A stretch of DNA of 50,462 nt. Source: a virus. Made by a program: the position numbers and the translations under genes. Where the stretch lies: IMG/VR virus record IMGVR_UViG_3300049437_000005. The stretch is one strand, 5' to 3'. Every line of letters starts with the position of its first letter. Position 1 is the stretch's first letter. The notes under the pieces were generated by a model, which had not been told where the DNA came from, made no database searches, and saw only the letters and a program-made list of their open reading frames with translations. This document shows, piece after piece, positions 807-45,087 of the stretch.

Positions 807-2624
807 TTACCAGCCGTCATTGTCTTTCTTACGCTTCGCTTCCTCGCGTTGCTGATTCCTCCATGCGAGTGACCCATATGGAGCCTTCGGCTTCTCGGGT
901 TCCTTCGGCTTCGCGGTATTTCCTCCAATCAATTTCCACGCCAAGGCGTCGGCCATTGTTCGGTCGCCGTGATTGCTCTTTGCCCCGGATGGATCGGTCT
1001 TGTCTTGCGCCTTAGAGTGAATCGGGCAACCATCGGTCGCAAAAACGTATTCGAGGCAATCTTCCAACGATTCCTTGGATCGGTTAATGCACATCCCGCC
1101 CTCGACGATAGCCCTATATGCCGAGATGATCGCCCGTTTCGTTTCCCGCGTCTGCGCCACGCCAGGAATATCAGTCTGCTTCTTCGACAGCGATTCCTCG
1201 CTCATGCGAAGATAATAATTCGTGTAGCCGAGTTCGATGAGTTTGTCGCCGAACTGACGACCCGGCCCGCCGCTCTCCCAAATCAGCTTCGGATTTCCAA
1301 GCCATTTGGCGATTGCGTAAACTTGGACGGCGAACGGCTCGGGGCGAAGGTACGGATTGATATACTCCGCAATTTTCTCGCCGGTAACTTCGTTCCAGAA
1401 TTCAGCGCATGAATTCGACGCACCAGTTCCCGCTGAAATGTCACAACCGCCGACTAGTTTATGTTCGGGATTGATCGACGGTTTGTTGTTCTTATCAAGC
1501 AAGCACCACAATCGCAGCCGCCCGCCAGAATCTTCTCGAAACTCGGTCGGCTCGCCGGTCGTTAAGTCGTAATCCACGTCACCGACGCACTCAGGCGGGC
1601 GCGTGTCGCGCTTTATTACAACTTGAACCTTGTCCGAATCGAAATACTGCCCGCCGCTACCCTGATAGTCGATATCCAACTCGGTCGCAATCTCGCGCTT
1701 ACTTCCGGCCCGCTCGCATTCCTGATCGTACCAAGGCGAACGCAGCTTACCGTCGAGAATCGGCTTATAGTCTTGCGGATAATTCTCGGGATCGAGGACC
1801 TTCAGGTTTCCATCCTCGTCAGTCGTATAAAGACCCTTCGCCTTCTCTGGATGAATTGACCAATGGAAGCGAAGTTTTCGTATGTTGGTCTGACGTGTCG
1901 CATAGAATTCGTTGTTAGTTCCCGTATCAGGGTCGGGCGTCGAGTTGAAGATACGGCATTTCGTCGCATCGCGGGTCGCAGACTTGACTCTCGCACCATC
2001 TCGGACGGCTGCGAATTCGTCGAGCAGGATCGCAGTTCGCCGGTCGCCACGCGCGACGTTGGCCGTTGTCGATTCGCCGTCGATTACCGAACCGTTCTCC
2101 GGGTTCTCTACGTGCATCATTTTCCGATGCACTTCTGGATCGTATCCTCGCGGACGCAACCAAACCGGCATATTGTTTAGAAGGAAATCGAACTTCCAAA
2201 ACAGCGCCTTCGGATTGCCTGCCTTATCTACGTAATCTTCGACGCGGGAAACGTAGAGGAACGATTGCAGCGCCTTGAATCTCCAACACCATTTGGTCGC
2301 CGCAATACAAGCCCACGATGCCCCCATATCACGACTTTTCTCGACAAGAATATCGTGATGATTGATTGATTCGATAATTTCGATAATCGCCTCTTCCTGA
2401 AATGGATACAGGATGAAAGGCAACTTCGGGAACGGCTCGCATCTCGGATCGAACGTCCAGCCGAATCCGTTGATATAAAACAACGGGTCTTGAGAGCACG
2501 CATCGCGGATCGCCTCAGCGAATCCGATATCGTCGATCGCGCGACGATTCACCGCCGCACGCCAGTGTAGATTGGCGCGCACGTCTTTCGGTATTCTGTA
2601 ATTGAACGGAGTCGAGACTTTCAT
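807..2624 (-). CDS. terL: Terminase large subunit
   Basis: 605-aa ORF. Walker A-like EKSRDMGASW, Walker B-like AILLDEFA, and an N-terminal FYINGFGWTFDPR...LYPFQ pattern typical of phage large terminases. Its start overlaps the upstream stop (ATGA). Confidence 0.85.
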   Translation of the reverse strand: MKVSTPFNYRIPKDVRANLHWRAAVNRRAIDDIGFAEAIRDACSQDPLFYINGFGWTFDPRCEPFPKLPFILYPFQEEAIIEIIESINHHDILVEKSRDMGASWACIAATKWCWRFKALQSFLYVSRVEDYVDKAGNPKALFWKFDFLLNNMPVWLRPRGYDPEVHRKMMHVENPENGSVIDGESTTANVARGDRRTAILLDEFAAVRDGARVKSATRDATKCRIFNSTPDPDTGTNNEFYATRQTNIRKLRFHWSIHPEKAKGLYTTDEDGNLKVLDPENYPQDYKPILDGKLRSPWYDQECERAGSKREIATELDIDYQGSGGQYFDSDKVQVVIKRDTRPPECVGDVDYDLTTGEPTEFREDSGGRLRLWCLLDKNNKPSINPEHKLVGGCDISAGTGASNSCAEFWNEVTGEKIAEYINPYLRPEPFAVQVYAIAKWLGNPKLIWESGGPGRQFGDKLIELGYTNYYLRMSEESLSKKQTDIPGVAQTRETKRAIISAYRAIVEGGMCINRSKESLEDCLEYVFATDGCPIHSKAQDKTDPSGAKSNHGDRTMADALAWKLIGGNTAKPKEPEKPKAPYGSLAWRNQQREEAKRKKDNDGW

Positions 2625-3136
2625 TTAGCGAAGATTCCGCAAGCGTACCATGTTCCATTTTGGCCCAACGCCATCGCGTAGCCGTAGAATTCGCACTCGC
2701 CGTTCACCGCTGCCCAATGGCCGGAAGAGTATCGCCAGGAACGGTACATTTCGGCTGCGGCTGCTTCAGCAGATTGATTGGGCCAACTCTCGTTCGCCAC
2801 TTCAGCGAAGTCTCGACTTCCGGGTAAAGCGGCGCGGAGGGAAGCATACCGAAGGTTCCAACCCTGGTGGCCTTGCACACAAACTCGGGCCATGTAGTCT
2901 GCGTGTTGCTGCGCGTATCGTTGGAGATGTTCATTCGGTCTGCCGGATGATATGCTAAGAACGCCAATTCGTCTGCCGGTTTGTATGAGAATTTCATTTG
3001 GAGTAGGCGGAAGAGAAGGTTTGACGACGGGCGGCTTAATCGGGGCAACATCAGGGCGGGGTTGAGTTCGGTCGAGTAGCAGTAGTCCAGTGATAAGGAT
3101 GAGCAACGGCGGTATGGTCGATAGGATTTTCTTCAT
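2621..3136 (-). CDS. Exported CAP/SCP/PR1-like domain protein with N-terminal signal/anchor
   Basis: 171 aa. N-terminal MKKILSTIPPLLILITGLLLL hydrophobic segment and a Pro-rich linker. The C-terminal domain has HADYM...GHQGW...ESW...SSGHWAAV...YGYA...WYACGIF, resembling YkwD/CAP domains. Its stop overlaps the terL start. Confidence 0.6.
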   Translation of the reverse strand: MKKILSTIPPLLILITGLLLLDRTQPRPDVAPIKPPVVKPSLPPTPNEILIQTGRRIGVLSISSGRPNEHLQRYAQQHADYMARVCVQGHQGWNLRYASLRAALPGSRDFAEVANESWPNQSAEAAAAEMYRSWRYSSGHWAAVNGECEFYGYAMALGQNGTWYACGIFAK

Positions 3137-3356
3137 ATTTCGTCACGCATGGTTGTTTACAAAAGAACAGCCATTTCCCTTCGATCTTCTTCGTGAAGAT
3201 TCCATGAATCGATGCGCACGTCGCGGAACCTGCCGTTCGCTGCACATGACAGCCAAGCGGGTTCACGCAACAGTCGCAATGCGACACGATTTCGTGTTCG
3301 GGTTTCATGGCTTTTCGTTTCGGTAGTTTCGTAACTTTTAACCTAGCTCGTCGCAT
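3051..3356 (-). CDS. Cys-rich putative zinc-binding protein
   Basis: Start chosen at the ATG at 3356, preceded by GGAGAGAG. Motif SHCDCCVNPLGCH...C...FFCKQPC looks like a TRASH/MYM-type metal-binding pattern. Its 3' end overlaps the CAP gene start by 86 nt. Confidence 0.45.
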   Translation of the reverse strand: MRRARLKVTKLPKRKAMKPEHEIVSHCDCCVNPLGCHVQRTAGSATCASIHGIFTKKIEGKWLFFCKQPCVTKYEENPIDHTAVAHPYHWTTATRPNSTPP

Positions 3357-4104
3357 TACTTTCTCTCTCCAATTCATCGAGCATTGCTTCGATCTCGGCA
3401 ACCGACTTCTGGCCCGACTTGCGAGTGTTCTTTCTCTCTTCGCTCTCGCCGTCGCCCTTCGATTCCATCTGGCCGACTTTCGCAAGGAAATCTTTTGGCT
3501 CCGCTAAGGCTTGGCAGTATAGATACCAAGCCGCGTCACACGGACAAGAAGCCGGGTCTTGCCGAGTGCGAAGATAATTGCCTGCCGCTTCAATCGCCCA
3601 ACGAAGGCTGTCGCGATAACTCTGCTCTTTCCCCTCGTTTGCAACCTTCGCTCTCGACGGAGGCGCTGCGGATTGATTTCCGGATGCCTGGACAGCCGGT
3701 TGCGTCGAAGGGCTTGGATCGTGTTGTGAGAGATCGTATTCACGGAATAGGATATGAAGGCAGGGATAATCTTTCGACGCCTGGACGGTCGCCTGCTGCT
3801 TCGTGTAGCCCGACTCTTCGAGGGCCTGAACCTTCGCCTCCCACGCGGCGTAGGTCGGCTTCTCGGCCCCAACATCCTGCCGCCAGAGGGTAGCCCGCGC
3901 CCGGCTAGTGAATTCGGTAATGTCGCGGACGTTAATTGCCGATTCCGGCTCGCGCTTACCGCCGTGCTTCTTGGCATACTTTCCGACCGTTGGTTTCGAG
4001 ATTCCGAATTCCTCTGCCAACTTCGATTGAGATTCCCCGGCTGCGTAGCGCCGGGCAATCTCGATCTGCTGAGATTCGGGGAGTCCAGGGGGATTAGTTG
4101 CCAT
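3343..4104 (-). CDS. terS: Putative terminase small subunit (HTH DNA-binding protein)
   Basis: The N-terminal ESQSKLAEEFGISKPTVGKYAKKHGG helix-turn-helix and the position upstream of terL in the packaging operon support the call. Start taken at the ATG at 4104, 17 nt after the upstream stop. Confidence 0.5.
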   Translation of the reverse strand: MATNPPGLPESQQIEIARRYAAGESQSKLAEEFGISKPTVGKYAKKHGGKREPESAINVRDITEFTSRARATLWRQDVGAEKPTYAAWEAKVQALEESGYTKQQATVQASKDYPCLHILFREYDLSQHDPSPSTQPAVQASGNQSAAPPSRAKVANEGKEQSYRDSLRWAIEAAGNYLRTRQDPASCPCDAAWYLYCQALAEPKDFLAKVGQMESKGDGESEERKNTRKSGQKSVAEIEAMLDELERESNATS

Positions 4105-4121
4105 GCTAATATCTATTCTGA

Positions 4122-4658
4122 TTAAGGGGTCAGGGTCGCCGCCCAAGGCAGCGCGCCTGGAAGGCACGACGAGAACCTGGCGGATTCGTCGAGAACTACG
4201 GCCTGCTTCCGTTCACCGGTTGGATCGGGCGGAACAATCTGAAGTGAATCGAGGTTGCTGATCTGCGATGCGGCCTTCGGGGCGACCAACGGTATGTCTG
4301 TACCGTAGAGTTTCGGGGTCGGTCGATCCTCCGGGTAGAAGCTATCGAGAATCTGACGATGCTTCTTCGAGATCATGCGGAGATCGCCGCCAATCGCTTC
4401 TAGGTAGTCGGCACGGCTACCGACTTGAATCTTGCCGGTCTTTGCGCTCCAGCGTTGCAGGCGCTCCATTAGTTCGGCGTCGGTTAGTTGCTTACGCCGC
4501 CCGGCGTGAGGCTTCGCCGCCAGGGCAAGGCCCTTCACGATCATTTGCTCCCAACTGACGCCTCCCATGCGAACAACAACGCATACTGCCTTGTAGCAGT
4601 AAGGGCATAGCCCACGAGTAGTCGCCTCATGCTGACAGGATGGATTCAGACATTTCAT
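4122..4658 (-). CDS. Zn-ribbon protein with CxxxC...RGLCxxCY...W...GLA motif; first gene of the minus (late) arm
   Basis: Start at MKCLNPSC is preceded by GGTAGGAA. The N-terminal 55 aa are clearly homologous to ORF 10432..10716. Confidence 0.6.
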   Translation of the reverse strand: MKCLNPSCQHEATTRGLCPYCYKAVCVVVRMGGVSWEQMIVKGLALAAKPHAGRRKQLTDAELMERLQRWSAKTGKIQVGSRADYLEAIGGDLRMISKKHRQILDSFYPEDRPTPKLYGTDIPLVAPKAASQISNLDSLQIVPPDPTGERKQAVVLDESARFSSCLPGALPWAATLTP

Positions 4659-5834: not shown

Positions 5835-6010
5835 CTTTGCGCCCTCCAATGATTGAGTATTCGCCCCCATTCAATCCTAGCTTGCGATTATCCCCACTAT
5901 ATAGGGGAATATAGAATAAGCTGCCAAAACGGCAGATACAGGATTGCGCCTAGCGAGTTCCGACGGGTTGACGTGATATCTGACTCAATTGCTGTCAGGC
6001 GCAAAAGAAT

Positions 6011-6029
6011 GGCCCCGATTAGCGGGGCC
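6011..6029. terminator. GC-rich hairpin, candidate bidirectional terminator
   Basis: GGCCCCG-attag-CGGGGCC. On the minus strand it is followed by ATTCTTTT, on the plus strand by GTTTG. Confidence 0.5.
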
Positions 6030-6142
6030 GTTTGCTGATTGCGCCGAGAGTGGCGCTAGATTGTATCTTGTGATTCGCACTCGAAACATGAATATCGCTC
6101 CCCTACCGCATATGAATAGATGGGGTTAGTGTGGCGAATATG

Positions 6143-6229
6143 TCAACAATCTAATTTAACCGATACTTTGCCGGTTTCTAAATTACGTTCGCTTTTAACT
6201 ACAACTCGAAGCGTATTCCGTTCGTCCAT
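6143..6229 (-). CDS. 28-aa micro-ORF with a perfect Shine-Dalgarno (MDERNTLRVVVKSERNLETGKVSVKLDC)
   Basis: GGAGG lies 8 nt upstream of the ATG at 6229. The ORF sits between the operator-like repeats and the 6011-6029 hairpin. It is too short for the ORF track. Confidence 0.3.
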   Translation of the reverse strand: MDERNTLRVVVKSERNLETGKVSVKLDC

Positions 6230-6410
6230 TGTCTAGTCCTCCAATATGTATGGTCTGTTGTTTGTGAACTAGCCACGCCGATCTTTACGCGTGGCTTGCG
6301 GGGCTTTCCCCCGCTCGGTTGCATCTTTACTGCCCTCCCTTCCTAACGGCATTTTCTGCCAATCTGAAAATGAAACGTTCGTCTAATCAAGTATTGCCGC
6401 GCTTTTCCAT

Positions 6411-6551
6411 GTAGTCAAGTATAATCGCCGAAATTCTCTCTTGCCATATAGTCGAGTATAAGCGCACTATTCGGCAATCCCCGCAATCGCGCGGATTATT
6501 TCCAGATATTTTCACCCGGTTATACTTGACTACAATATAGCCGGATATAAG
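6411..6551. promoter_or_regulatory. Four operator/iteron-like 14-mers (consensus TAGYCRRGTATAAK) in the divergent control region
   Basis: TAGTCAAGTATAAT (6412-6425, +), TAGTCGAGTATAAG (6449-6462, +), TAGTCAAGTATAAC (6520-6533, minus strand), TAGCCGGATATAAG (6538-6551, +). They embed TTGACT and TATAAT/TACAAT-like hexamers. Confidence 0.6.
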
Positions 6552-6569
6552 CTTGAATAGTGGTTGATC

Positions 6570-6648
6570 GATTGCGGGGGAATGATACGGCGGATTGAAT
6601 CGCAACCTTCCGCCTTATAGCAGAAACGGCGGTTATTCCCCCGCAATC
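6570..6648 (+). promoter_or_regulatory. Perfect 14-bp inverted repeat bracketing a 51-nt leader just upstream of the first early RBS
   Basis: GATTGCGGGGGAAT (6570-6583) and ATTCCCCCGCAATC (6635-6648). A related CCCCGCAATC is at 6479-6488. Internal ACGGCGG occurs twice plus one CCGCC. GGAGG is at 6658-6662 and the ATG at 6670. Confidence 0.6.
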
Positions 6649-6669
6649 TCCAGCAATGGAGGAAAAACA

Positions 6670-6792
6670 ATGAACGCTATCCGATCTTATCTCCGCCGAA
6701 ACCTAAATGCGAAGCGTCTTTCCCGTATCATCGCGAACGATAAGCAATGTGCTATGTTCGCGCGTTTCATCCGGGGGGCAAAACAATGCTGA
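6670..6792 (+). CDS. Early micro-protein (40 aa, basic)
   Basis: GGAGG lies 7 nt upstream. Conserved AAACAATG start context. Its stop overlaps the next start. Confidence 0.5.
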   Translation: MNAIRSYLRRNLNAKRLSRIIANDKQCAMFARFIRGAKQC

Positions 6793-8681: not shown

Positions 8682-9113
8682 ATGGGAATGATTACTTGGA
8701 ACACTGACGTTAATGCGCCATGTTGCCCCGGTGAAATCATCGGCCCCCGCTATCGCGACGACGAAACCGGGCGCTTTACGAATGATCGGATATTGATACA
8801 GACCGATTGGGACTATCCTGTGACAGCGCGAAGTTTTGGCTGGGATATGCGCACCGTACAGAGTGCGCCATACCGTGAATGCCCACAATGCGGCTACCGG
8901 GAAAACATCGACGATTGCGACGATGAATTCTGCCCCGATTGCCCCGATACGCGCATGGAATTGCACACAAGCGATTGCGAGCATAGAGGGACTGACGGGA
9001 CTGTTGATTGTCCAGAGTGCGGGCTAACCGCTAGCGCGTTTATCAGCGCCGCCGGGGACTGGTTAGATGAAAACGACGGGGCAACAGCGATTGACCCCGG
9101 ATACTTCGGCTAG
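8682..9113 (+). CDS. Cys-rich hypothetical protein with zinc-ribbon-like CxxC pairs
   Basis: CPQCG, CPDCPD and CPECG motifs. 143 aa. Confidence 0.55.
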   Translation: MGMITWNTDVNAPCCPGEIIGPRYRDDETGRFTNDRILIQTDWDYPVTARSFGWDMRTVQSAPYRECPQCGYRENIDDCDDEFCPDCPDTRMELHTSDCEHRGTDGTVDCPECGLTASAFISAAGDWLDENDGATAIDPGYFG

Positions 9114-9155
9114 ATCAATCAGAGTGCGCCAATAAACAGAGAGGGAATAGACAAA

Positions 9156-9440
9156 ATGAGAATCCCGGTTGTCTTTCGACGTTTTCGGGAGGGTGATTTG
9201 GTTGCCCTCTTCCCGACAATCCCAGCCGATAATTCTGGCCGATACTGCGATAGTTTCCAGCATATCGGCCAGCATGGCGGCGCAGATTACAGCGGGCTGA
9301 TTGCCGAGACAGCGCCCGCGCATATATCAGAGTGCGTCGCGCTGATTCGCGAACTAACAAGCGCGCCATACCATTACGACTTGCGCGTTATCAAGAGGGC
9401 AACAGCCAAAATGCACACAGAGAGGGTCAATCAATCGTGA
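9156..9440 (+). CDS. Hypothetical protein (94 aa)
   Basis: GAGAGGG RBS. Preceded by the CAGAGTGCGC box 36 nt upstream. Confidence 0.55.
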   Translation: MRIPVVFRRFREGDLVALFPTIPADNSGRYCDSFQHIGQHGGADYSGLIAETAPAHISECVALIRELTSAPYHYDLRVIKRATAKMHTERVNQS

Positions 9441-10132
9441 GAACTACATTACGCCAGCAAAATGTTATGCTGTCGGTCGAAACCGACAGCGCGATTGTCG
9501 ATTTCGACGATATCCTAGGCGCTACTGAGGTAGTGCCGGATGAATGTTCCCAAGATACGCCTTGGGACAATTGCGACGGATTCGAGCATACGGCGAAACC
9601 GTCGCGCGATCATTGCGATACAAAACGCAAGTCTCGCGGTTGCTGTTTGGATTCCGGCAACCGTCAACACGTCATTATCGAATTGCCGGAAGGGGAGGAT
9701 TATGGCGTTGCTGAATACCATAGCGAGCGCGGTGCGTCGCGGGGAGTCTGCGCCGAAATGGTAAGCATAGCGCGCCAGAAAACGCTCGATCTATTAACCG
9801 GATGGTATGAGAACGGCTGGCAGTATTGGGGCGTCAAGTGCGATTTCGAGCGATTGGGGCAAGACTTCTCAGATTCGATTTGGGGTATCGACGACGACAA
9901 ATATGCCGACGATTTGCGAGAGGAAATTGCGCTTAATGTCGCGAGCCAGCTTGAAATCGCGGGCTACACAGTAACCGGCAAGCCGGTTGCCGAGAAGCGA
10001 TTGACAGCCAAGCGATATACTGTTTGCGTAATCGCAGCCGGAATTACAGAAGGGTACTATCCGCGCTCGCTGTCGGCGCAGGAATGGCGGGAGGAATTCA
10101 AGCGTAACCTTCATTCACAAGACTGGAAATAG
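9437..10132 (+). CDS. Hypothetical protein (GTG start coupled by GTGA overlap; alternative ATG at 9467)
   Basis: In-frame GTG at 9437 overlaps the upstream stop, with GAGAGGG 10 nt upstream. The longer 9332 start would overlap the upstream gene by 109 nt. Confidence 0.5.
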   Translation: MRTTLRQQNVMLSVETDSAIVDFDDILGATEVVPDECSQDTPWDNCDGFEHTAKPSRDHCDTKRKSRGCCLDSGNRQHVIIELPEGEDYGVAEYHSERGASRGVCAEMVSIARQKTLDLLTGWYENGWQYWGVKCDFERLGQDFSDSIWGIDDDKYADDLREEIALNVASQLEIAGYTVTGKPVAEKRLTAKRYTVCVIAAGITEGYYPRSLSAQEWREEFKRNLHSQDWK

Positions 10133-10179
10133 CGCAGAGTGCGCAACCAGTAACGCAACCTAGATCGGAGGGAGTAATC

Positions 10180-10395
10180 TTGTCTCAGATTATCGACAGA
10201 GCGACGGCGCTGAAAATCATTGTCTTGTCATTCGAGAATTCATGCCTTAATGAACTGGCCGAAATTGTTTCCAACATAATGCAAGGCGAAGGCGTAGTTG
10301 TGAGCGACGGACTGCGCGAAAGCGCAGAATACCGAAACGGGGCGAAGGTAGCGGGCAAATCGAAGCGCCGTCGGCGCGACGGTAAACACGAATAG
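10180..10395 (+). CDS. Hypothetical small protein (TTG start)
   Basis: GGAGGGAG RBS upstream of the TTG. The CAGAGTGCGC box lies 45 nt upstream. Confidence 0.5.
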   Translation: MSQIIDRATALKIIVLSFENSCLNELAEIVSNIMQGEGVVVSDGLRESAEYRNGAKVAGKSKRRRRDGKHE

Positions 10396-10431
10396 CAGAG
10401 TTCGCGAACCATTAACAACGGGAGGATAACT

Positions 10432-10716
10432 GTGTACGAGTGCATTATTGACGGTTGCGAGAATCCGCATGGTCCTCGCGGATTGTGCGAGAAGCATTAC
10501 AAGAGGGCTGTACGCGCTGTACGTTGTGGCGATACCACTTGGGATTCACTGGTATCTCAGGGGCTTGCAAAAGAGGCTATGGCGCTTGGGTCGGTCAACG
10601 GACACAAGGGGCCAGAAAAATCCGAACTAGCGTTGCTCTATCGTGGCAACCAGCAACTTATCGACGCGCACCTAGGCAGAGTGCGCGAGAGAATTCTAGG
10701 GAGAATGTCGGCATGA
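10432..10716 (+). CDS. Zn-ribbon protein with CxxxC...RGLCxxHY...W...GLA motif (paralog of 4122..4658)
   Basis: GTG start with GGGAGGA RBS. MYECIIDGCENPHGPRGLCEKHYKRAVRAVRCGDTTWDSLVSQGLA aligns with MKCLNPSCQHEATTRGLCPYCYKAVCVVVRMGGVSWEQMIVKGLA. Confidence 0.6.
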   Translation: MYECIIDGCENPHGPRGLCEKHYKRAVRAVRCGDTTWDSLVSQGLAKEAMALGSVNGHKGPEKSELALLYRGNQQLIDAHLGRVRERILGRMSA

Positions 10717-11393
10717 ATGTTACAACCTACGCAAAACGCGCGATTATCTACACCCGTTTCTCGCCTCGCCCCGACGCCGAAACGTCGCAGTCTTGCGAGA
10801 AACAAGAGGAGCGCTGCCGCGCCTACTGCGAGAGAATGGGCTATCAGGTTATGGGAGTCTGCGCCGACAAAGACATTACGGGCGGAATTCTCGACCGGCC
10901 AAAACTACGCAAGGCTATTCAATTCCTGCGCCCCGGATGGGTACTCGTCATTGACGCAGGCGACAGACTCGCGCGTGATATGCTCGTCGAATTAACGATC
11001 CATGCGGAAGTCGAACGCGCAGAGTGCGCGATTGAATACGCCGATGGTTCGCCGACGCGCTCGACGCCAGAAGGCAACCTATTCCGCAATATGATGGGAG
11101 CGTTCGCGCAGTATGAGCGAGAACGTGTTGTCTTGCGCACAAAGCGCGGCCTGAAGAAGAAGCGCGATAACGGCGAGTGGCAAGGCAAGCCGCCCATTGG
11201 CTATCAATACGACAAGAGAAGCAAGACGCTTATCGAGCATCCCGGCGAGCAGATCGCACTTGCTTATCTTCGGCAGCTACCCGACGAAATGAATTCGGTA
11301 ACGAAGGCTAAATGGGTCACAAGTAAGCACGGCCCTATTCGCGGAAAGCCTTGGAGCGCCAGGACGGTGCGCAAGATTTTGGCTTCACGCTAG
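10713..11393 (+). CDS. Small serine recombinase (resolvase/invertase catalytic domain plus a truncated recombinase-type C-terminus)
   Basis: AIIYTRFSP (catalytic Ser context), DRLARD, FAQYERER, then GKPPIGYQYD...WSARTVRKIL. 226 aa. ATGA overlap with the upstream ORF. Confidence 0.8.
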   Translation: MNVTTYAKRAIIYTRFSPRPDAETSQSCEKQEERCRAYCERMGYQVMGVCADKDITGGILDRPKLRKAIQFLRPGWVLVIDAGDRLARDMLVELTIHAEVERAECAIEYADGSPTRSTPEGNLFRNMMGAFAQYERERVVLRTKRGLKKKRDNGEWQGKPPIGYQYDKRSKTLIEHPGEQIALAYLRQLPDEMNSVTKAKWVTSKHGPIRGKPWSARTVRKILASR

Positions 11394-11499
11394 AACGATT
11401 GTCAGTGAATAGAAACGCGCCTGTAACCATTTCTTATTCACAAAGGCGAGACTACTAGACTTGCCTTCGCATCAATGATCTTTCATCAGAAGGACTAGA

Positions 11500-11898
11500 A
11501 TGCTTTTCCTGCTAACTGATTGCGAGATTGTCACCATCATTAAAGAAGCGAAACGAAATGACGACGGCACACTACGCATACGTATGCCAGCAAACCGGCT
11601 GCAAGATAACGAACAGAGTGCGCCATTGATTCTTGAATTCGACGAATCTGCGCATACTGTATCGCTCGGCAAGCGAAGCGTTCGGCTGTCGAGAAAACAA
11701 TTTCATCTTCTGCGATACGTTTACATGCACGGCAAGGCCGGATACGAGGAACTGCAAGATTGCGTTTGGGATGGTCTTGTGACTGACAATACTATTCGAG
11801 CGACGTTATCAATCATCAACTCGAAGCTGCTTGACGCCGGATTACGAGCGGAATTGATTGCGTTTCGCAGCAAGGTGTCTATCGAGAGAGTTGCGTAG
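11500..11898 (+). CDS. Winged-helix (OmpR/PhoB-type Trans_reg_C-like) DNA-binding protein
   Basis: The C-terminal half VRLSRKQFHLLRYVYMHGKAGYEELQDCVWDG...TIRATLSIINSKL matches the effector-domain pattern. There is no receiver domain. Confidence 0.6.
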   Translation: MLFLLTDCEIVTIIKEAKRNDDGTLRIRMPANRLQDNEQSAPLILEFDESAHTVSLGKRSVRLSRKQFHLLRYVYMHGKAGYEELQDCVWDGLVTDNTIRATLSIINSKLLDAGLRAELIAFRSKVSIERVA

Positions 11899-11926
11899 CC
11901 TTACTATATAATACGTTCTCTTGCCG

Positions 11927-11948
11927 CCCGCTTCTCAGCGGGTTTTTT
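11927..11948 (+). terminator. Rho-independent terminator
   Basis: CCCGC-ttctca-GCGGG followed by TTTTTT, 29 nt after the stop of 11500..11898. Confidence 0.75.
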
Positions 11949-12071
11949 GTTGCGCATAGTGCGCCTTCTATTAGCAAGGAATCTATTGCTGTGAGCAAAA
12001 GCCCTCGAAGCATAATCGAGTTATCACTTGTCGATTGATTCACTTGTTTATCGCTTCGCCGGGAGAAAATC

Positions 12072-12263
12072 GTGAACCGCAAAGTCTGGATTATCTGCGA
12101 ACTAACGGAAGATTTCTGCATCGGAACAGTCGGACAGATTCTCGCAGACAGGCCGTTGAAAGACGGTTTGTTTGAAGCGGTTCAGGCAGTCGTTAAGGAA
12201 ATGGTCGCCGACGACAACTTCGACGTTGATTCCATCGAATTCACGATTGAGATTCGCAACTAA
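12072..12263 (+). CDS. Hypothetical small acidic protein (GTG start)
   Basis: GGGAGA lies 5 nt upstream of the GTG. Confidence 0.5.
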   Translation: MNRKVWIICELTEDFCIGTVGQILADRPLKDGLFEAVQAVVKEMVADDNFDVDSIEFTIEIRN

Positions 12264-12344
12264 CAGAGTGCGCGGCGGGCGAGGGAAAAGTCTCATCGCT
12301 GCCCCGCCCGTCGCCGCTCGCCAGAATAACTCACAGAGAGAATC

Positions 12345-13139
12345 ATGGCCTTTAATCTCGCTTCCATCACTAACGAAACCCGGCTTCGCGCACCTAGAAT
12401 CATTCTTCTCGGCGTCGAGAAGATCGGCAAGAGCAGCTTCGCGGCTGGCTCCGACCGGCCAATCTTCATCCCGGTAAGGGGCGAAGAGGGAATCGACGGC
12501 ATCGCCGTTCCGCAATACCCGACGTGCAAGACATTCGACGATGTTATGTCTTGCCTGTACTCACTCTATACAGAGAAGCATGAGTTCGGAACGTCGGTCA
12601 TCGACTCCTCTTCGACTCTTCAGCCGATCATCTTTGAGGAGATTTGCAGGAAGAACGGCAACGTCGATTCCATCGAGAAGGCTTGCGGAGGATACGGCAA
12701 GGGCTACGTCGAAGCGCTGTCGTACTGGCGTCGAATCACCGAAGCGCTGGATGCCCTACGCAATGATCGAGGTATGGCTTCGATCATCATTGGACACGTC
12801 ACCGTCAAGCGGTTCGACGATCCATGCGGCGAGAGCTACGACCAGTATCAATTCGACCTGCACGATGGCAAAAGTTCGAGCGCCGTACAACTCTTGTTCC
12901 GTTGGGCCGACGTTATTCTCTTCTGCAATACGAAAGTCATTGTCAGGAAAGAGGAAGTCGGCTTCAAGGGCGAGAAGCATCAAGGCGTCGATATCGGAAA
13001 CGGCGCTCGCTTTCTCTACACGCAGAAGCGACCGGCTCATCCTGGCGGCGGGCGCGGCGTCTATGGCCGACTCCCATACGAGTTGCCTTTGAACTTCGGT
13101 TCGTTCATGGATGCCGTTCAAGCGGCATCGAAACAATAG
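12345..13139 (+). CDS. AAA_24 / Sak4-like RecA-family ATPase (recombination)
   Basis: Walker A ILLGVEKIGKSSF. The size and overall pattern are typical of phage Sak4-like ATPases. It is followed by a DUF669-type SSB-like gene. Confidence 0.7.
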   Translation: MAFNLASITNETRLRAPRIILLGVEKIGKSSFAAGSDRPIFIPVRGEEGIDGIAVPQYPTCKTFDDVMSCLYSLYTEKHEFGTSVIDSSSTLQPIIFEEICRKNGNVDSIEKACGGYGKGYVEALSYWRRITEALDALRNDRGMASIIIGHVTVKRFDDPCGESYDQYQFDLHDGKSSSAVQLLFRWADVILFCNTKVIVRKEEVGFKGEKHQGVDIGNGARFLYTQKRPAHPGGGRGVYGRLPYELPLNFGSFMDAVQAASKQ

Positions 13140-13175
13140 CGCAGGAAGCAACACCCCGGAAGAGAGGTTTTTGAA

Positions 13176-13667: not shown

Positions 13668-13806
13668 ACCATGCGAACGATCTTGTTTTGGATTGTCAAA
13701 AACGTACCGCTCGGCAGACTCGCGCCTTGGGTACTCGGTTTAGCGCTTGGCAGAATGCCGCGCCGGATTAAGTAGGAAGCAACACCCTTTGAAAGAGAGG
13801 TTTCTA

Positions 13807-15629: not shown

Positions 15630-15667
15630 GCCCGGCAGAAGCCGCAAGAAACTGCCGGGCTTTTTTT
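15630..15667 (+). terminator. Rho-independent terminator
   Basis: GCCCGGCAG-(13 nt)-CTGCCGGGC followed by TTTTTTT. Confidence 0.8.
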
Positions 15668-18619: not shown

Positions 18620-18656
18620 TTAGAGCGCGCTGTTGGCTACGACGTAACCAACTGAA

Positions 18657-18727
18657 TGATCGGTAGTGAAATGGTATCACTCCCGGCGAGAAGCTATGGA
18701 ATTGCGGGTTCGACTCCCGCCCGATCA
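18657..18727 (+). tRNA. tRNA-like element with canonical geometry but a degenerate anticodon stem-loop (possible pseudo-tRNA or non-decoding tRNA mimic)
   Basis: Acceptor TGATCGG/CCGATCA pairs 7 of 7. U8 and A14 are present. D-arm GTGA-AATGGTA-TCAC. T-arm GCGGG-TTCGACT-CCCGC. 5-nt variable loop. The anticodon arm CCCGG-CGAGAAG-CTATG pairs at only 3 of 5 positions and lacks U33. Confidence 0.45.
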
Positions 18728-18734
18728 TTTTATT

Positions 18735-26343: not shown

Positions 26344-27094
26344 GCACGAACTTTTCAATTGCGATTGCGTCGAGTTTTTGGAGAACGACACGCGATGTTG
26401 GGATACGATTTTCGCAGACCCGCCTGATAACATCGGACTAAATTACAGGGAGTACCGCGACCGTAAGCCGGAAGAAGAATACGTCAACTGGCTAGAAACG
26501 TGCCTCGATATGTTCATGCGCAAATCGCAGACGTTATGGTTCAGCTTCAACGCTCGCTGGACGTTCGCGGTCGGCAACATCTTCTACAAGCTACTGAAGC
26601 ACTACGACGCTTGGGAAGCGAAGCCATGCGTACAAGTCTTCACCTTTGGTCAGCATAACCACAACGACCTTGGGAACAACCATAGGCCGCTATGGCGGAT
26701 TCGGCGGAAAGACGCACCGCTGTTCCCCGACGCGGTTCGGGTTCCGTCCTGGCGGCAGGAACATGGCGACAAGCGGGCCGACCCTCGCGGGCGCGTTCCG
26801 GGAGATGTTTTCGATTTTACACGCGTTACAGGCAACAGCGAGCAGCGTCGTGCATGGCATCCGACGCAACTTAATGAGGGCCTTGTCGAGCGATGTCTTA
26901 AACTGACGACTCCTCCGGACGGAACTGTTCTCGATCCATTCGGAGGAACAGGGACCACTCTGAGGGTCTGCAAGCGGTTAGAACTGCCTTGCGTTATCGT
27001 CGAGTTGGACCAGACGTATTGCGAGAAGATTTTCGAGGAACACCGTCAGGGCGACTTGGCACGCGGGTCGCTCGAATTCACGAAGCCCTCTTAA
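26336..27094 (+). CDS. DNA methyltransferase (N6-A/N4-C, PF01555-like) with an atypical DPPD motif IV
   Basis: IFADPPDNIG (motif IV-like, Asp where Tyr/Phe is usual) and DPFGGTGTT (motif I) in beta-class order. Confidence 0.7.
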   Translation: MIKHELFNCDCVEFLENDTRCWDTIFADPPDNIGLNYREYRDRKPEEEYVNWLETCLDMFMRKSQTLWFSFNARWTFAVGNIFYKLLKHYDAWEAKPCVQVFTFGQHNHNDLGNNHRPLWRIRRKDAPLFPDAVRVPSWRQEHGDKRADPRGRVPGDVFDFTRVTGNSEQRRAWHPTQLNEGLVERCLKLTTPPDGTVLDPFGGTGTTLRVCKRLELPCVIVELDQTYCEKIFEEHRQGDLARGSLEFTKPS

Positions 27095-27317
27095 CTTTCC
27101 GCTTCGGCTTGATCGAAATATCGACTTCAACGCCAAGGCCCTCGGCAATCGCTTCTAGCGTACTTAGCTTTACGTCTTTGTAAATTCCGTTTGAGAACCG
27201 AGAGTAGGCAACAGTCGTAAGGCCAGCCGCCTCGGCGGCTTCGGCCTTTGTCATTTCGATCTGCTCTCTGTGCTTCTCGAACAATCTCTGCACTTGCTTA
27301 GCTAGGATGTTCTTCAT
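27078..27317 (-). CDS. XRE-family HTH regulator
   Basis: MTKAEAAEAAGLTTVAYSRFSNG...LSTLEAIAEGLG matches HTH_3. Its start overlaps the integrase stop (ATGA). Its 3' end overlaps the convergent MTase gene by 17 nt. Confidence 0.75.
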   Translation of the reverse strand: MKNILAKQVQRLFEKHREQIEMTKAEAAEAAGLTTVAYSRFSNGIYKDVKLSTLEAIAEGLGVEVDISIKPKRKVKRAS

Positions 27318-28291
27318 GTTGCGATCTCCTCTTCTTCATGTGTGGTTTTACCGAACAGCCAATCATGTACCCTATCGGCAAGTTTCTTCAGCCTCGGTAG
27401 CTTATCCAAGTGTCTTTTCGCATAAAATCTTGCTTGTATGCTTGATGGGGTGTGACCCATCGTTAAGTTAATCATCGTCTTGTCGCCCGATCTGTCAATT
27501 ACAGCCGAGTACGTATGCCGAAGCGAACCAATGCTGACGCCTTTTGTTCGGTATCCTATGTCGTCAAGCATTTTGCTGAATGCGTCAATTACCTTTCGGC
27601 CTTCTCCGTCTTTCGTATGCGGCTTTCCGTACCGGGTCAGGATGATCGTATGCTCGCTTTGGTTGTGGCATCGCCGGTAGTTGGATCGGTAGTCTAGAAT
27701 CGCGGCGACAGTCTCGGGCCAGAGTACCGCCATTCTGGCACGTCCATTCTTCACTCGCCGGAAGTCATGGTACGGAATCTTCGTATCGACGGTATGAACG
27801 TGGTCGAAGGTCAGTGCTATTGAATCTCCGGGGTAGAATCCGCAATTTATCCCCAACAGAATCGCAACCTTCATGGCCGGTTTCGCCCGCCGAAGAGACG
27901 CAAGTATCGCCTCGCGTTCAATGAATCGATCTGGGCTTTTCTTTTCCTGCTCGATCTCGATATCGTTGCTTCCTGGAGGATCAAATTCGCCGCCGTACCT
28001 TATGACATTACTAATGTATCCGCGTTTCTCGCCCCAATTAAACACTGATCTAACAGACATTATAGCATTGCGTCTTGTCTTTAATCGCCACCCAGTATCA
28101 TAAATCCGCTTTCGAATCGTGAGAAAAACTTCTGGGCCTACCGACTTTAACTTCACCCCTCTAATCGAAGGGATTTCCAGCACGGCATCTAGTCTGCTGT
28201 AGTCCTTGATGGTTCTTTGGCTGCGTTCTCCCATTGCAACCTTTTCTGTGATTGCAATACGATGTTTGTCAAACAAGTCCCCAATCGTCAT
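27314..28291 (-). CDS. int: Tyrosine recombinase / phage integrase
   Basis: 325 aa. An N-terminal SAM-like region and a C-terminal GSLRHTYS...MGHT...Y pattern. Adjacent to a tRNA 3' fragment. Confidence 0.8.
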   Translation of the reverse strand: MTIGDLFDKHRIAITEKVAMGERSQRTIKDYSRLDAVLEIPSIRGVKLKSVGPEVFLTIRKRIYDTGWRLKTRRNAIMSVRSVFNWGEKRGYISNVIRYGGEFDPPGSNDIEIEQEKKSPDRFIEREAILASLRRAKPAMKVAILLGINCGFYPGDSIALTFDHVHTVDTKIPYHDFRRVKNGRARMAVLWPETVAAILDYRSNYRRCHNQSEHTIILTRYGKPHTKDGEGRKVIDAFSKMLDDIGYRTKGVSIGSLRHTYSAVIDRSGDKTMINLTMGHTPSSIQARFYAKRHLDKLPRLKKLADRVHDWLFGKTTHEEEEIAT

Positions 28292-28395
28292 TTGATGTGC
28301 CTTAAAACTGCTGCCTCTACTACAATGATAGCATACGCTTCATTTAGCGTATTTTCTATCGTTGTAAAGTCAAGCAGAATAAGGGGTTACAAGAG

Positions 28396-28432
28396 TGCGG
28401 ACGGTGGGACTTGAACCCACACCTAAACGGTT
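28396..28432 (-). other. attP candidate: 3' fragment of a class II (long variable arm, Leu-like) tRNA gene
   Basis: The minus strand reads ACCGTTTAGGT-GTGGG-TTCAAGT-CCCAC-CGTCCGC-A (variable arm, T-arm, 3' acceptor strand, discriminator). No matching 5' acceptor GCGGACG or anticodon arm lies upstream, so this is a fragment rather than a gene. Confidence 0.65.
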
Positions 28433-28547
28433 ATACAGCAAGGACTTACGGCACGTCGAAAATAACCAGAAAAAAACTTTCGACCCCTACAATCGTATAG
28501 TCAACTACAAGGCCCTAGAATGCGTACTGTTGCGTTGGGCAGAAGGC

Positions 28548-44880: not shown

Positions 44881-45087
44881 TTAGACCTTACGTTCGTATC
44901 CAGTTAAGACATTCGTAAGGGCATCCATTCCGACCTGATTCCTCTTCGGCTGCCTCTGCAACTGCTGCTGTTGTTTCTGCTTCTTTATCTTGTTTTGGCG
45001 CTGCAATTCGTCCCACTCTGCCTGCTTGCGTTTTTGCTGCTCGGCCTGCTTCTGCTGCTGCCTGACTTGTTCGGGTGTGAGGGCCAT
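44881..45087 (-). CDS. Q/K-rich coiled-coil small protein
   Basis: 68 aa. QQQKQAEQQKRKQAEWDELQRQNKIKKQKQQQQLQRQ. TAATG-coupled to the upstream gene. Confidence 0.4.
   Translation of the reverse strand: MALTPEQVRQQQKQAEQQKRKQAEWDELQRQNKIKKQKQQQQLQRQPKRNQVGMDALTNVLTGYERKV

Follow-up and report, generated by a model that had tools for sequence, protein, structure and literature searches.

What does a 10-nt word do that recurs, on one strand only, within a short part of a phage genome? The window, by which we mean the whole stretch of 50,462 nt analysed (IMG/VR record IMGVR_UViG_3300049437_000005), is a complete circular temperate phage genome of ~50.3 kb, whose host is a planctomycete of the Pirellulales; the same phage is present as an integrated copy in a Pirellulales (Planctomycetota) chromosome. 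The + strand shows a single canonical promoter region, and the main divergent promoter and operator region carries its own 13-bp box and does not contain the 10-mer CAGAGTGCGC (Table 1). Copies of the 10-mer occupy the distal half of the one early operon and the start of the transcription unit behind it, a distribution that does not establish the ‘middle-gene set’ proposed in the preliminary description, and the array adjoins a recombination/replication module (Sak4-like protein, SSB, Cas4-type exonuclease, helicase and Prim-Pol).

Through a mismatch search of both strands, we recovered the seven exact and four one-mismatch copies described beforehand, all on the + strand and co-oriented with transcription, between 8859 and 12273 (3.4 kb, ~7% of the genome). 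No exact copy occurs elsewhere in the genome on either strand. Allowing one mismatch gives 13 matches genome-wide, of which the two outside the cluster (− strand, 16471 and 19258) do not exceed the 4.3 expected by chance; the box is thus absent from the other 47 kb. In 100 shuffles the exact word appeared 0.11 times on average (maximum 2) and never reached seven. The conserved element is exactly 10 nt long and G+C-rich, with unrelated flanks and no conservation outside the box, and boxes are spaced ~340 bp apart on average; the closest neighbours are 107 bp apart and three copies fall within 260 bp. Intragenic copies are read as QSAP (twice), xECx (three times) and GRVRE (once), while further copies lie in spacers; use of all three reading frames as well as spacers indicates a nucleotide-level signal rather than a coding repeat, as had been suggested.

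Table 1. Box copies and other features of the phage, with positions in the window.
Feature	Coordinates	Strand	Remarks
Main divergent promoter and operator region	6412..6532	.	Three copies of 13-bp TAGTCRAGTATAA
Box copy 1, exact	8859..8868	+	Inside gene 8682-9113, frame QSAP; upstream arm GCGCAC at 8849-8854
Box copy 2, CAGAGTGCGG, 1 mismatch	9013..9022	+	Inside gene 8682-9113; upstream arm absent
Box copy 3, exact	9120..9129	+	Intergenic; 6 nt past stop 9113, 36 nt before ATG 9156
Box copy 4, CAGAGTGCGT, 1 mismatch	9328..9337	+	Inside gene 9156-9440; 109 nt before GTG 9437; arm GCGCA at 9318-9322, variant T still pairs as G.U in RNA
Box copy 5, exact	10135..10144	+	2 nt past stop 10132; 45 nt before TTG 10180; in perfect dyad GCGCAGAGTGCGC, 10132-10144
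71-aa protein	10180..10395	+	Arginine-rich C-terminal tail KSKRRRRDGKHE; between boxes 5 and 6; from sequence only
Box copy 6, CAGAGTTCGC, 1 mismatch	10396..10405	+	Directly behind stop 10395; 36 nt before GTG 10432; variant base yields palindrome GTTCGCGAAC
Zinc-finger protein, 94 aa	10432..10716	+	C-x4-C-x9-C-x2-H, resembles N-terminus of HNH endonucleases; two paralogues in relative L002
Box copy 7, exact	10677..10686	+	3′ end of gene 10432-10716, frame GRVRE; 36 nt before ATG 10713; upstream arm CGCGCAC at 10665-10671
Small serine recombinase, 226 aa	10713..11393	+	Next to Sak4-like gene also in relatives L001 and L002
Box copy 8, exact	11020..11029	+	Inside serine recombinase gene, frame AECA; dyad CGCGCAGAGTGCGCG, 11016-11030
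Orphan, stand-alone PhoB/OmpR-type winged-helix DNA-binding domain, 132 aa (gp11500)	11500..11898	+	Homology and structure searches
Box copy 9, exact	11614..11623	+	Inside PhoB/OmpR-type gene 11500-11898, frame QSAP
Intrinsic terminator	11926..11949	+	GCCCGCTTCTCAGCGGGT and T-run; closes first early transcription unit
Box copy 10, CATAGTGCGC, 1 mismatch	11955..11964	+	6 nt past terminator T-run; 117 nt before GTG 12072; in dyad GCGCATAGTGCGC, 11952-11964, mismatch alters loop alone
Box copy 11, exact	12264..12273	+	Directly behind stop 12263; 81 nt before ATG 12345 (Sak4-like gene); 3′ end opens strong GC hairpin, arms 12272-12284 and 12302-12314

Could the box be without function, whether as an effect of chance or composition, as an oligonucleotide found throughout the host or as a repeat in coding sequence? 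This genome is rich in GCGC-containing words in general, and the same 10-mer recurs in some other viral contigs; there, however, every recurrence either is a chance pair or belongs to a longer coding repeat. Related phages, including relatives L001 and L002, lack the box, which also has 0 copies in 1.34 Mb of host-related Planctomycetota chromosome sequence and is therefore not a host-wide oligonucleotide. Its sub-words are not enriched in the same 1.34 Mb (observed/expected ~1), and a host Chi, uptake or REP sequence is thereby ruled out as well. As the word is confined to its cluster, with a similar density found neither genome-wide nor in host-related DNA, the signal stands. Between the shuffle counts, the restriction to one strand and a small part of the genome, the bounded conservation, the absence from host DNA and the nature of the matches in other contigs, the reading without function is refuted, its probability being negligible.

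The placement of the copies is also non-random. Four of the 11 lie 0–6 nt behind a stop codon (P = 1.2e-5, or 4e-4 conditional on intergenic location), and three begin exactly 36 nt ahead of a start codon, leaving 26 nt from the box end (P = 5e-4), with Shine-Dalgarno positions that differ among the three. Seven copies have a start codon no more than 120 nt downstream (P = 0.009), and every gene from 9156 to 12345 is preceded by a box within this distance, the regulator gene 11500-11898 excepted; five copies are well inside genes. On recomputation, the start-codon distances given previously (36, 36, 36, 45 and 81 nt) were all reproduced. Since the 11 same-strand copies lie mostly just past a stop and before the next start, the box is a real, phage-private, sense-strand control signal tied to cistron boundaries.

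A GCGCA arm is found 3–11 nt upstream of the TGCGC half in six of the 11 copies, as compared to 11 of 165 (6.7%) other genomic TGCGC sites, and the other five are without a pairing arm. Arm–box spacing varies, with loops of 3 or 8–10 nt, a variation more in keeping with a hairpin in a single strand than with a rigid protein dimer. Only three copies form a tight hairpin, and box windows are not predicted to fold with a better energy than other TGCGC windows. The dyads GCGCA-GAG-TGCGC (10132-10144 and 11017-11029) and the post-terminator variant GCGCATAGTGCGC reported in the preliminary description are all present, and the mismatched copies are compatible with structure in that 9328 retains a G.U pair and the change in 11955 is confined to the loop. 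An AACCAKTAAC box, also reported there, does follow the 10135 and 10396 copies but is not significant alone (seven one-mismatch matches versus 3.1 expected).

Our tentative preference, held at well under an even chance, is for an mRNA-level cistron-boundary signal; we infer that RNA rather than DNA is read, that a trans-acting factor reads it, and what that factor does. The box would mark where cistrons meet, both in the early operon's distal 3.4 kb and at the front of the unit transcribed next, and is most likely read in the transcript directly behind the end (stop or terminator) of the upstream unit and at a fixed 26 nt before the next start, where its TGCGC half can close a small GC hairpin with the upstream GCGCA arm in about half of the copies. 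A sequence-specific factor may bind or cut RNA at the box and would thereby fix both the 3′ terminus of one cistron and the short leader on the 5′ side of its successor; these ends could in turn control stability or translation of individual early cistrons. Intragenic copies may down-regulate their messages or supply extra binding sites, and a processed Sak4 message would begin with the strong hairpin into which the 12264 box runs. We identified no RNA-binding protein, nuclease or complementary RNA as trans-acting reader, and no plausible small RNA of the phage carries a complementary 10-mer; the 71-aa protein with the arginine-rich tail is, speculatively, an RNA-binding candidate. Points against a transcript-level reading are the five well-intragenic copies, the five arm-less copies and the DNA-binding regulator gene inside the array. 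Because a terminator that looks efficient lies just upstream of the 11955 copy, only read-through transcription would include that copy. No close relative was found in which to look for covariation.

If the box instead acts in DNA, gp11500 is the candidate reader. The earlier identification of a winged-helix protein is supported by PDB phmmer (E=0.02), NCBIfam PhoB (E=0.003) and Foldseek, whose best matches are OmpR/PhoB DNA-binding domains; among 5.8e9 proteins gp11500 matches itself alone, and its JGI label is OmpR-family regulator. The boxes would then form an operator array for a monomeric sequence-specific DNA-binding protein, most plausibly gp11500, with bound co-oriented boxes halting host RNA polymerase along the distal early operon as polar roadblocks or shut-off sites, in a stoperator-like manner and with negative feedback on the regulator’s own gene. 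We consider this possible, if on the unlikely side, and somewhat less probable than reading in the transcript. An asymmetric 10-bp site corresponds to one helical turn and to the size of one OmpR/PhoB half-site, all copies follow transcription, and the regulator is as phage-unique as the box, its gene having its own 106-nt upstream spacer, a downstream terminator and a box within the reading frame. A roadblock array would naturally accommodate intragenic copies, the 11955 copy would not need transcription, and stoperators offer a precedent of 13-bp asymmetric, orientation-dependent sites in short intergenic spaces (PMC9283540). However, the main early promoter/operator region has no copy and carries a different 13-bp box, and no second half-site, normally needed by OmpR/PhoB proteins, is seen at ±10–11 bp. 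The exact 36-nt start spacing, the stop-codon abutment and the variable-distance GCGCA arms are left unexplained, a roadblock 0–6 nt past a stop would stall polymerase before that stop codon is transcribed, and it is nothing unusual for 3.4 kb of phage early region to contain a DNA-binding gene.

Fixed spacing and an association with gene starts could also point to promoters. A conventional promoter finds no support, as no −35/−10 conservation surrounds the box and neither an RNA polymerase nor a recognisable sigma factor was found in the phage. An unconventional promoter, whether a single element or a site for an activator or an appropriated sigma factor like T4 late TATAAATA or MotA boxes, would restart transcription before most early cistrons and directly past the terminator, with leaders of ~20 nt; this we regard as rather improbable. 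One copy, 6 nt past the terminator and ahead of the next gene, does lie where transcription requires a new promoter, and related planctomycete phages have dispersed, highly conserved promoters at equivalent early-array positions, including directly upstream of the 9437 homologue. Yet the box is G+C-rich and lacks a conserved −35/−10-like partner, and 26 nt to the start excludes a −35-type or PhoB-type site unless messages are leaderless, in which case a usable −10 exists in one of three cases and one of the three starts is GTG. Eleven promoters per 3.4 kb, three of them in 260 bp, would be redundant, and the pairing arms find no explanation.

The serine recombinase identification was upheld, but its proposed role as binder was not: the boxes are isolated, of 10-bp half-site size, in direct orientation and scattered over 3.4 kb, which does not support a serine-recombinase site. 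Other DNA transactions (a nick, Prim-Pol priming, an iteron-like origin, a Chi-like nuclease attenuator or a packaging site) seem very unlikely. A sharply bounded one-strand word would suit exact, enzyme-like recognition, hairpin-prone copies could fold in single-stranded DNA, the array abuts the recombination/replication module, and localised strand-specific nicks with a consensus reportedly occur in phages (T5, Pseudomonas phage tf). However, no variant explains placement relative to stop and start codons, the mean spacing is unlike iterons or pac/cos sites, box and sub-words are not enriched in host-related DNA, and no nickase or HUH gene was recognised in the phage.

Known systems resemble the box in part. 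OmpR/PhoB sites (pho box) share a ~10-bp asymmetric unit, and a domain of this type is encoded in the array, but they consist of at least two direct repeats with 10–11 bp periodicity beside a −10 element, whereas the box is isolated, without a degenerate second half-site or −10 partner. T4 late TATAAATA (gp55/gp33) and MotA boxes are A+T-rich or −10-paired and depend on identified phage factors. Like the box, they are short invariant words, co-oriented with genes and just upstream of cistrons, sometimes in the preceding gene; unlike them, the box is G+C-rich and unpaired with a −10, and no such factor is recognisable. Lambda and P22 nut boxB hairpins (P22 boxB, GCGCU-GACAA-AGCGC) are read by arginine-rich N proteins, occur once per operon, require boxA and have a 5-nt GNRA-like loop. 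The likeness lies in a small GC stem in early transcripts and in the arginine-rich-tail protein encoded between two boxes, the difference in 11 copies, a tight hairpin in three only and no detected N homologue.

The closest known analogues are mycobacteriophage SAS/ESAS and stoperators. SAS/ESAS (Start-Associated Sequences and extended SAS) of Cluster K mycobacteriophages is a short asymmetric repeat of 10–20 copies in a single orientation, restricted to non-structural genes, tied to downstream starts and absent from the host genome, with inverted repeats of variable spacer at about half of the sites and a protein or RNA as proposed reader (PMC3203893). The box shares the asymmetry, single orientation, non-structural half, start association, host absence and inverted repeats in about half of copies, and in both an upstream stop codon often lies within or beside the element. 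SAS, however, is a 13-bp element (GGGATAGGAGCCC) with a Shine-Dalgarno core inside, 3–7 bp from the start codon and conserved across a phage cluster, whereas the box is 10 bp, without such a core, at least 36 nt from the start and hard against the preceding stop, has five copies inside genes and is seen in one phage only; the host phyla also differ. Stoperators of Cluster A mycobacteriophages (L5, TipsytheTRex) are asymmetric sites bound by a monomer, with orientation following transcription (PMC9283540). They too are many, belong to a temperate phage and lie in short intergenic spaces and within operons, but they are 13 bp, number more than 20 genome-wide and also overlap the early lytic promoter as operator, as opposed to 11 boxes in 3.4 kb with none at the early promoter. 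Their reader is an immunity repressor with HTH and ‘stoperator’ domains, that of the box would be a PhoB/OmpR-type winged helix, and the fixed start-codon spacing and hairpin arms set the box apart from stoperators.

Within the window, the 10-mer CAGAGTGCGC (the box) occurs in seven exact copies, all on the plus strand, against 0.11 copies expected and a maximum of two in dinucleotide-preserving shuffles of the 50,462 bases. Allowing one mismatch adds four plus-strand copies inside the same interval; the remaining one-mismatch matches, two on the minus strand outside the array, are compatible with a chance background of 4.3, and two-mismatch matches are scattered over both strands at background level. 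The sites are confined to 3.4 kb of the 50.3 kb, 107-807 bp from their neighbours, and all 11 share the coding strand of a block of genes that run in one direction. When the 11 copies are profiled for information content together with 45 nt on either side, conservation covers exactly 10 near-invariant positions, and the flanks are unrelated save for a weak S then A 3′ of the box and a weak A at –6. Copies occur in spacers as well as within genes, where every reading frame is represented (QSAP twice, xECx three times, GRVRE once). All factual statements of the preliminary description, those on exact and one-mismatch copies, strand, frames and distances among them, were reproduced; the AACCAKTAAC box that it had reported is indeed present after two copies and carries no significance by itself.

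The preliminary description had named a similar density across the phage or host genome as the mark of a general oligonucleotide bias. [quoted passage not shown] In the same 80 loci, 6- to 9-nt sub-words of the box occur at 0.7-1.5 times the frequency expected under a Markov model. The condition named in the preliminary description therefore does not hold. Since the box is absent from this 1.34 Mb of related DNA and from the 9.3-kb flank, and its sub-words are not enriched in the 1.34 Mb, a host-wide oligonucleotide of the Chi, DNA uptake sequence or REP type is excluded as far as the sampled DNA goes. The proposed search of related phages and host-related DNA was run and found the box in neither; the fetched phage loci were reached through Sak4 (72-57% identity), the 7326 protein (51%) and the 9437 protein (41-59%), and relatives with a 47% identical serine recombinase gave no box. 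When IMG/VR was scanned for pairs of boxes spaced by 245-275 nt, 12 loci emerged; in each, the 10-mer is part of a longer coding repeat with conserved flanks or a chance pair; none of the 12 has isolated boxes like those of this phage. In unrelated viral contigs (L165 3986-5171, L154/L155/L157/L163, L160 and L161), the 10-mer belongs to repeated coding units of greater length, beta-propeller-like repeats and an ECAELR coiled-coil repeat among them, so that exact recurrence of the 10-mer alone is not diagnostic. For the boxes of this phage, a coding repeat as origin is ruled out, since copies lie in three frames and in spacers and their flanks are unrelated. No Rfam families or tRNAs were found at the boxes, and no antisense partner RNA was found within the phage, G·U pairs allowed.

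A 127-bp terminal direct repeat at its ends identifies the window as a complete, circularly assembled genome of ~50.3 kb. It is JGI contig 3300048558 Ga0496011_0000603, with near-identical copies in a dozen related samples. The phage is temperate, with an integrated copy in a host contig (3300048072 Ga0496014_0000285, 75,668 bp), where the att core, which resembles a tRNA 3′ end, is identical at both prophage junctions (L060 1-260; L067 10900-11400). Past the att core lie chromosomal genes for a GFO/IDH/MocA oxidoreductase, HEAT-repeat proteins, ACPS, HflX and RsgA, at 61% G+C; HflX is 90-93% identical to that of Pirellulales MAGs, which makes the host a planctomycete of the order Pirellulales. 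A TerL search of genome contigs found no prophage relatives. Outside the box array, the 8-mer AGAGTGCG occurs once, exactly at the att core edge, in the context AAGAGTGCGG, which is the tRNA-like 3′ end with its trailer in reverse complement, and a minus-strand transcript entering the integrase gene would bear 8-9 nt of box complement; as such an 8-mer is expected ~1.5 times per genome by chance, the match is probably a coincidence.

Structural and packaging genes are on the minus strand, and the plus strand from ~6.6 to 27 kb carries the early, recombination and replication genes, including those for a Sak4-like AAA_24 protein, SSB, a Cas4-type exonuclease, a helicase, a Prim-Pol and a methyltransferase. 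The SU10-type adaptor hints at a podovirus-like virion. The 1477-aa protein encoded among the tail/virion genes is devoid of polymerase motifs and without a match in PHROG, Pfam or the PDB; an internal or ejection role is probable for it. The predicted tRNA-Ser had no Rfam match at the gathering threshold. On the plus strand, the first transcription unit is a tightly packed operon running from a divergent control region to a strong intrinsic terminator. The box array begins 2.2 kb into this unit, covers genes 8682 to 11898 and reaches 300 nt into the second unit; its genes are small, and few have an assigned function. In the control region, the copies of a different, 13-bp box overlap –35/–10-like hexamers and are probably operators of the lysis-lysogeny switch.

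Coordinates of the boxes and of other features in the phage genome
Feature	Position	Strand	Remarks
Box, exact copies	8859, 9120, 10135, 10677, 11020, 11614, 12264	+	
Box, one-mismatch copies	9013, 9328, 10396, 11955	+	
Boxes in tight dyad	10135, 11020, 11955		GCGCA-GAG/TAG-TGCGC
Boxes with arm and 8-10 nt loop	8859, 9328, 10677		
GC hairpin	12272-12314		–47 kcal/mol (region), z = –4.7, no U-tract; between 63-aa gene and Sak4-like gene; begins at last bases of box 11
Terminase genes	807-4167	–	Strand opposite boxes
Stretch with no convincing genes	~5871-6670		0.8 kb; holds the 13-bp box copies
13-bp box TAGTCRAGTATAA	6412-6424 (+), 6449-6461 (+), 6520-6532 (–)		Three copies, 0.05 expected
Zinc-finger protein	10432 gene		94 aa; in box block; remote relatives only
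Serine recombinase			226 aa; in box block; Pfam 1.4e-29; adjoins Sak4 also in box-less relatives
Imperfect inverted repeat	11405-11441		GTGAATAGAAA-N14-TTTCTTATTCAC; in 106-nt spacer upstream of PhoB/OmpR-type gene
gp11500	11500-11898		132 aa; predicted stand-alone PhoB/OmpR-type winged-helix DNA-binding domain
Terminator of first unit	11926-11949		Strong, intrinsic
Second unit	12072 to near 15640		Ends at terminator
Repeated leader	13144-13175, 13775-13806		GGAAGCAACACCC-N3-5-GAA(A)GAGAGGTTT; directly upstream of gene 13176 and SSB gene
tRNA-Ser (anticodon AGA)	18656-18729	+	74 nt; ARAGORN; in 115-nt spacer before helicase gene
Xre/RstR-like HTH protein	27078-27317		79 aa; follows integrase
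Integrase	27314-28291	–	
att core	28391-28484		94 bp
8-mer AGAGTGCG	28392-28399	+	
1477-aa protein	31482-35915	–	Coiled-coil-rich, with hydrophobic segments
SU10-type adaptor	45087-45878		

The boxes are placed with respect to genes in a defined manner. In statistics computed after the pattern had been seen, against random positions within 8859-12264, five of the 11 boxes lie wholly in spacers (P = 0.003), seven precede a start codon by at most 120 nt (P = 0.009), three have an identical 36-nt distance to the start (P = 5e-4), and four lie 0-6 nt 3′ of a stop codon (P = 1.2e-5, or 4e-4 conditional on being intergenic). Shine-Dalgarno distances to the start differ among the three 36-nt genes. 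The box in the 173-nt spacer sits 6 nt past the terminator T-run. With the exception of regulator gene 11500, all genes from 9156 to 12345 are preceded by a box at a distance of at most 120 nt. The rule appears to be that a box follows immediately upon the end of the preceding unit and, with little or no spacer, lies 26 nt before the next start. The box is a signal read on the sense strand and linked to the boundaries between cistrons.

Among the functions first suggested for the box was a dedicated promoter. A conventional one is excluded, as there is no conserved –35/–10, the start codons are too near for the box to stand in for a –35 element in anything but a leaderless message, and no phage RNA polymerase or sigma-like protein was found among the phage proteins. 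For a sigma-70-type promoter (–35/–10, 16-18 bp spacer), the profile is flat outside the 10-mer and a promoter scan is blank at the boxes; canonical plus-strand promoter-like sequences in non-coding DNA occur only at ~6500-6545, in the divergent control region. A leaderless promoter with the box as a –35 substitute would have a usable –10 in only one of three cases. The N4-type hairpin promoter (5-7 bp stem, 3-nt loop), which a virion RNA polymerase recognises, finds its hairpin in only three of 11 copies and its polymerase absent. Related planctomycete phages do carry repeated full sigma-70 promoters and conserved leaders at equivalent positions of the early array, dispersed in L053 (5386, 5796, 9005, 9816, 12061), L153, and L050 and L052 (~4640, 7040, 9920). 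These promoters, in 4-7 highly conserved copies with conserved spacer and leader, have the versions TTGACTTTCCCGAAAAGTGTGCTATGCT and TTGACTTAC..CCTTCTG..TATTAT, and a C/A-rich leader GGAGCAAGCAACC preceding ATG in the relatives is similar to the repeated leader of this phage. Judged from these sequences, early cistron heads may be where planctomycete phages place expression signals. An unconventional promoter element at the boxes strikes us as improbable.

Upstream of six of the 11 copies stands a GCGCA(C) able to pair with the (G)TGCGC half of the box through arms of 5-7 nt, an enrichment (P ~3e-5) over the 6.7% seen at the other 165 TGCGC words of the genome. Four of the six arms are within coding sequence, and five copies have no arm. 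In the 9328 variant (C to T) a G·U pair is retained, in the 11955 variant the change is confined to the loop, and box 12264 continues into the 5′ arm of a strong hairpin. Box windows are not predicted to be unusually stable, their mean being –10.0 versus –9.6 kcal/mol for other TGCGC windows.

A reading at the level of mRNA gives the best account of both the stop/start placement and the variable-distance pairing arms. On the view, to which we lean tentatively, that the box is an RNA-level boundary signal, the transcript would be bound or cut there, so that one cistron receives its 3′ end and its successor a short leader of uniform length. The reader is putative, and the intragenic and post-terminator copies are not predicted by this reading. 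A fuller version, which we consider rather doubtful, is sequence-specific mRNA punctuation: the 10-nt box, often on a small hairpin, would be read in the early polycistronic transcript by a new phage factor, and the message cut or clamped behind each stop to yield cistron-sized messages with uniform 26-nt leaders. Candidates for the factor are the Arg-tailed 71-aa protein (10180-10395), one of the zinc-ribbon proteins, or a guide RNA. The logic would be like that of CRISPR-repeat or RegB processing, with a much longer recognition word.

The winged-helix protein proposed earlier as a binder, gp11500, leads to a possible alternative, to which we give somewhat less credence, namely a DNA operator array of stoperator-like roadblocks read by this regulator. 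Several lines of evidence, each weak, concordantly point to an OmpR/PhoB winged-helix effector fold: phmmer against the PDB matched OmpR-family effector domains (best E = 0.02), NCBIfam PhoB models matched the DNA-binding part (E = 0.003, far under the curated cut-off), Foldseek placed the PhoP, SaeR, CadC and NsrR DNA-binding domains on top (prob 0.9-0.99, from a single-sequence AlphaFold model of low confidence, pLDDT 59), and the JGI name is that of an OmpR-family regulator. No homologues of gp11500 were found among 5.8 billion clustered proteins or in IMG/VR. The inverted repeat upstream of its gene may be its operator or an RNA hairpin. In favour of the array, the site is asymmetric and 10 bp long, every copy is co-oriented with transcription, regulator and box are both exclusive to this phage, intragenic copies are natural among roadblocks, and one copy sits past a terminator. 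Nevertheless, the early promoter has no box, though a box at the promoter defines stoperators, and the two strongest statistical features, stop/start positioning and variable-distance arms, are left unexplained. The predicted fold of the candidate reader is like that of OmpR/PhoB regulons, whose sites, unlike these boxes, are tandem direct repeats with a 10-11 bp period; the boxes are isolated, the closest being 107 bp apart, and show no excess box similarity at ±8 to 24 bp where a second half-site might lie. A classical OmpR/PhoB site, with a degenerate second half-site one helical turn off, was accordingly rejected. In L002, a relative with 64% identical Sak4, the divergent control region holds three tandem 10-bp repeats TGATGCGGAC plus an inverted set of three, flanking a 116-bp centre (2738-2767 (+), 2884-2913 (–), 3126 (+)); these adjoin two paralogues of the 10432 zinc-finger protein, and their repeat unit has the core GA(G)TGCG in common with the box.

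A role in some other DNA transaction (nick, priming, iteron or Chi-like site) is distinctly unlikely. Origin iterons and pac or cos repeats cluster within a few hundred bp, usually in non-coding DNA or within the initiator or terminase gene; the boxes are spread over 3.4 kb, and the terminase genes stand apart from them on the opposite strand. The serine recombinase, also put forward as a binder, would act on paired inverted half-sites of ~12 bp around a central dinucleotide, usually at two sites; the boxes are isolated 10-mers in direct orientation, the longest dyad measuring 13-15 bp, and such a site was discarded. A box without function has practically no weight with us, and what probability remains belongs to mechanisms we have not thought of.

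To our knowledge, almost nothing is known about gene regulation in Planctomycetota phages. The box is a clean, statistically unambiguous cis-element, and its 11 copies, defined stop/start geometry and one obvious protein candidate make it directly testable by simple assays. Under either reading, an exact 10-nt word recognised by a reader of the phage's own could serve as an orthogonal regulatory part.

Two classes of phage repeats invite comparison. Stoperators of Cluster A mycobacteriophages number more than 20 sites dispersed over both genome arms, the same site is also the operator overlapping the early lytic promoter, and the reader is an immunity repressor with an HTH and a stoperator domain (PMC9283540). 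Like stoperators, the box is asymmetric and its orientation follows transcription in all 11 copies; unlike them, it has only 11 sites, all in one short array, and 6400-6560 holds no box (at most one mismatch) and instead the 13-bp box. The similarity of gp11500, the only protein compared, is to OmpR/PhoB domains and not to the stoperator repressor. Should the boxes prove a DNA roadblock array, stoperator-like polar silencing would have evolved independently outside Actinobacteria, with a PhoB/OmpR-type monomer. The SAS/ESAS repeats of Cluster K mycobacteriophages consist of the 13-bp GGGATAGGAGCCC, which contains a Shine-Dalgarno core and lies 3-8 bp upstream of the start; about half have an inverted repeat with a variable spacer (PMC3203893). 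The box differs in sequence, length and distance from starts (36-117 nt), and it has no Shine-Dalgarno core. It resembles them in its single orientation, its restriction to non-structural genes, its absence from the sampled host-related DNA, and its inverted repeat in six of 11 copies (loops of 3-10 nt, with arms of only 5-7 nt). SAS/ESAS are a striking descriptive precedent for the mRNA-level reading, and an RNA-level boundary signal would offer a mechanism for this long-unexplained class. The box behaves like the dispersed one-orientation repeats of actinobacteriophages, yet falls outside both classes, since sequence, length and position differ, no copy lies at the early promoter, and the family of the candidate reader and the host phylum are different.
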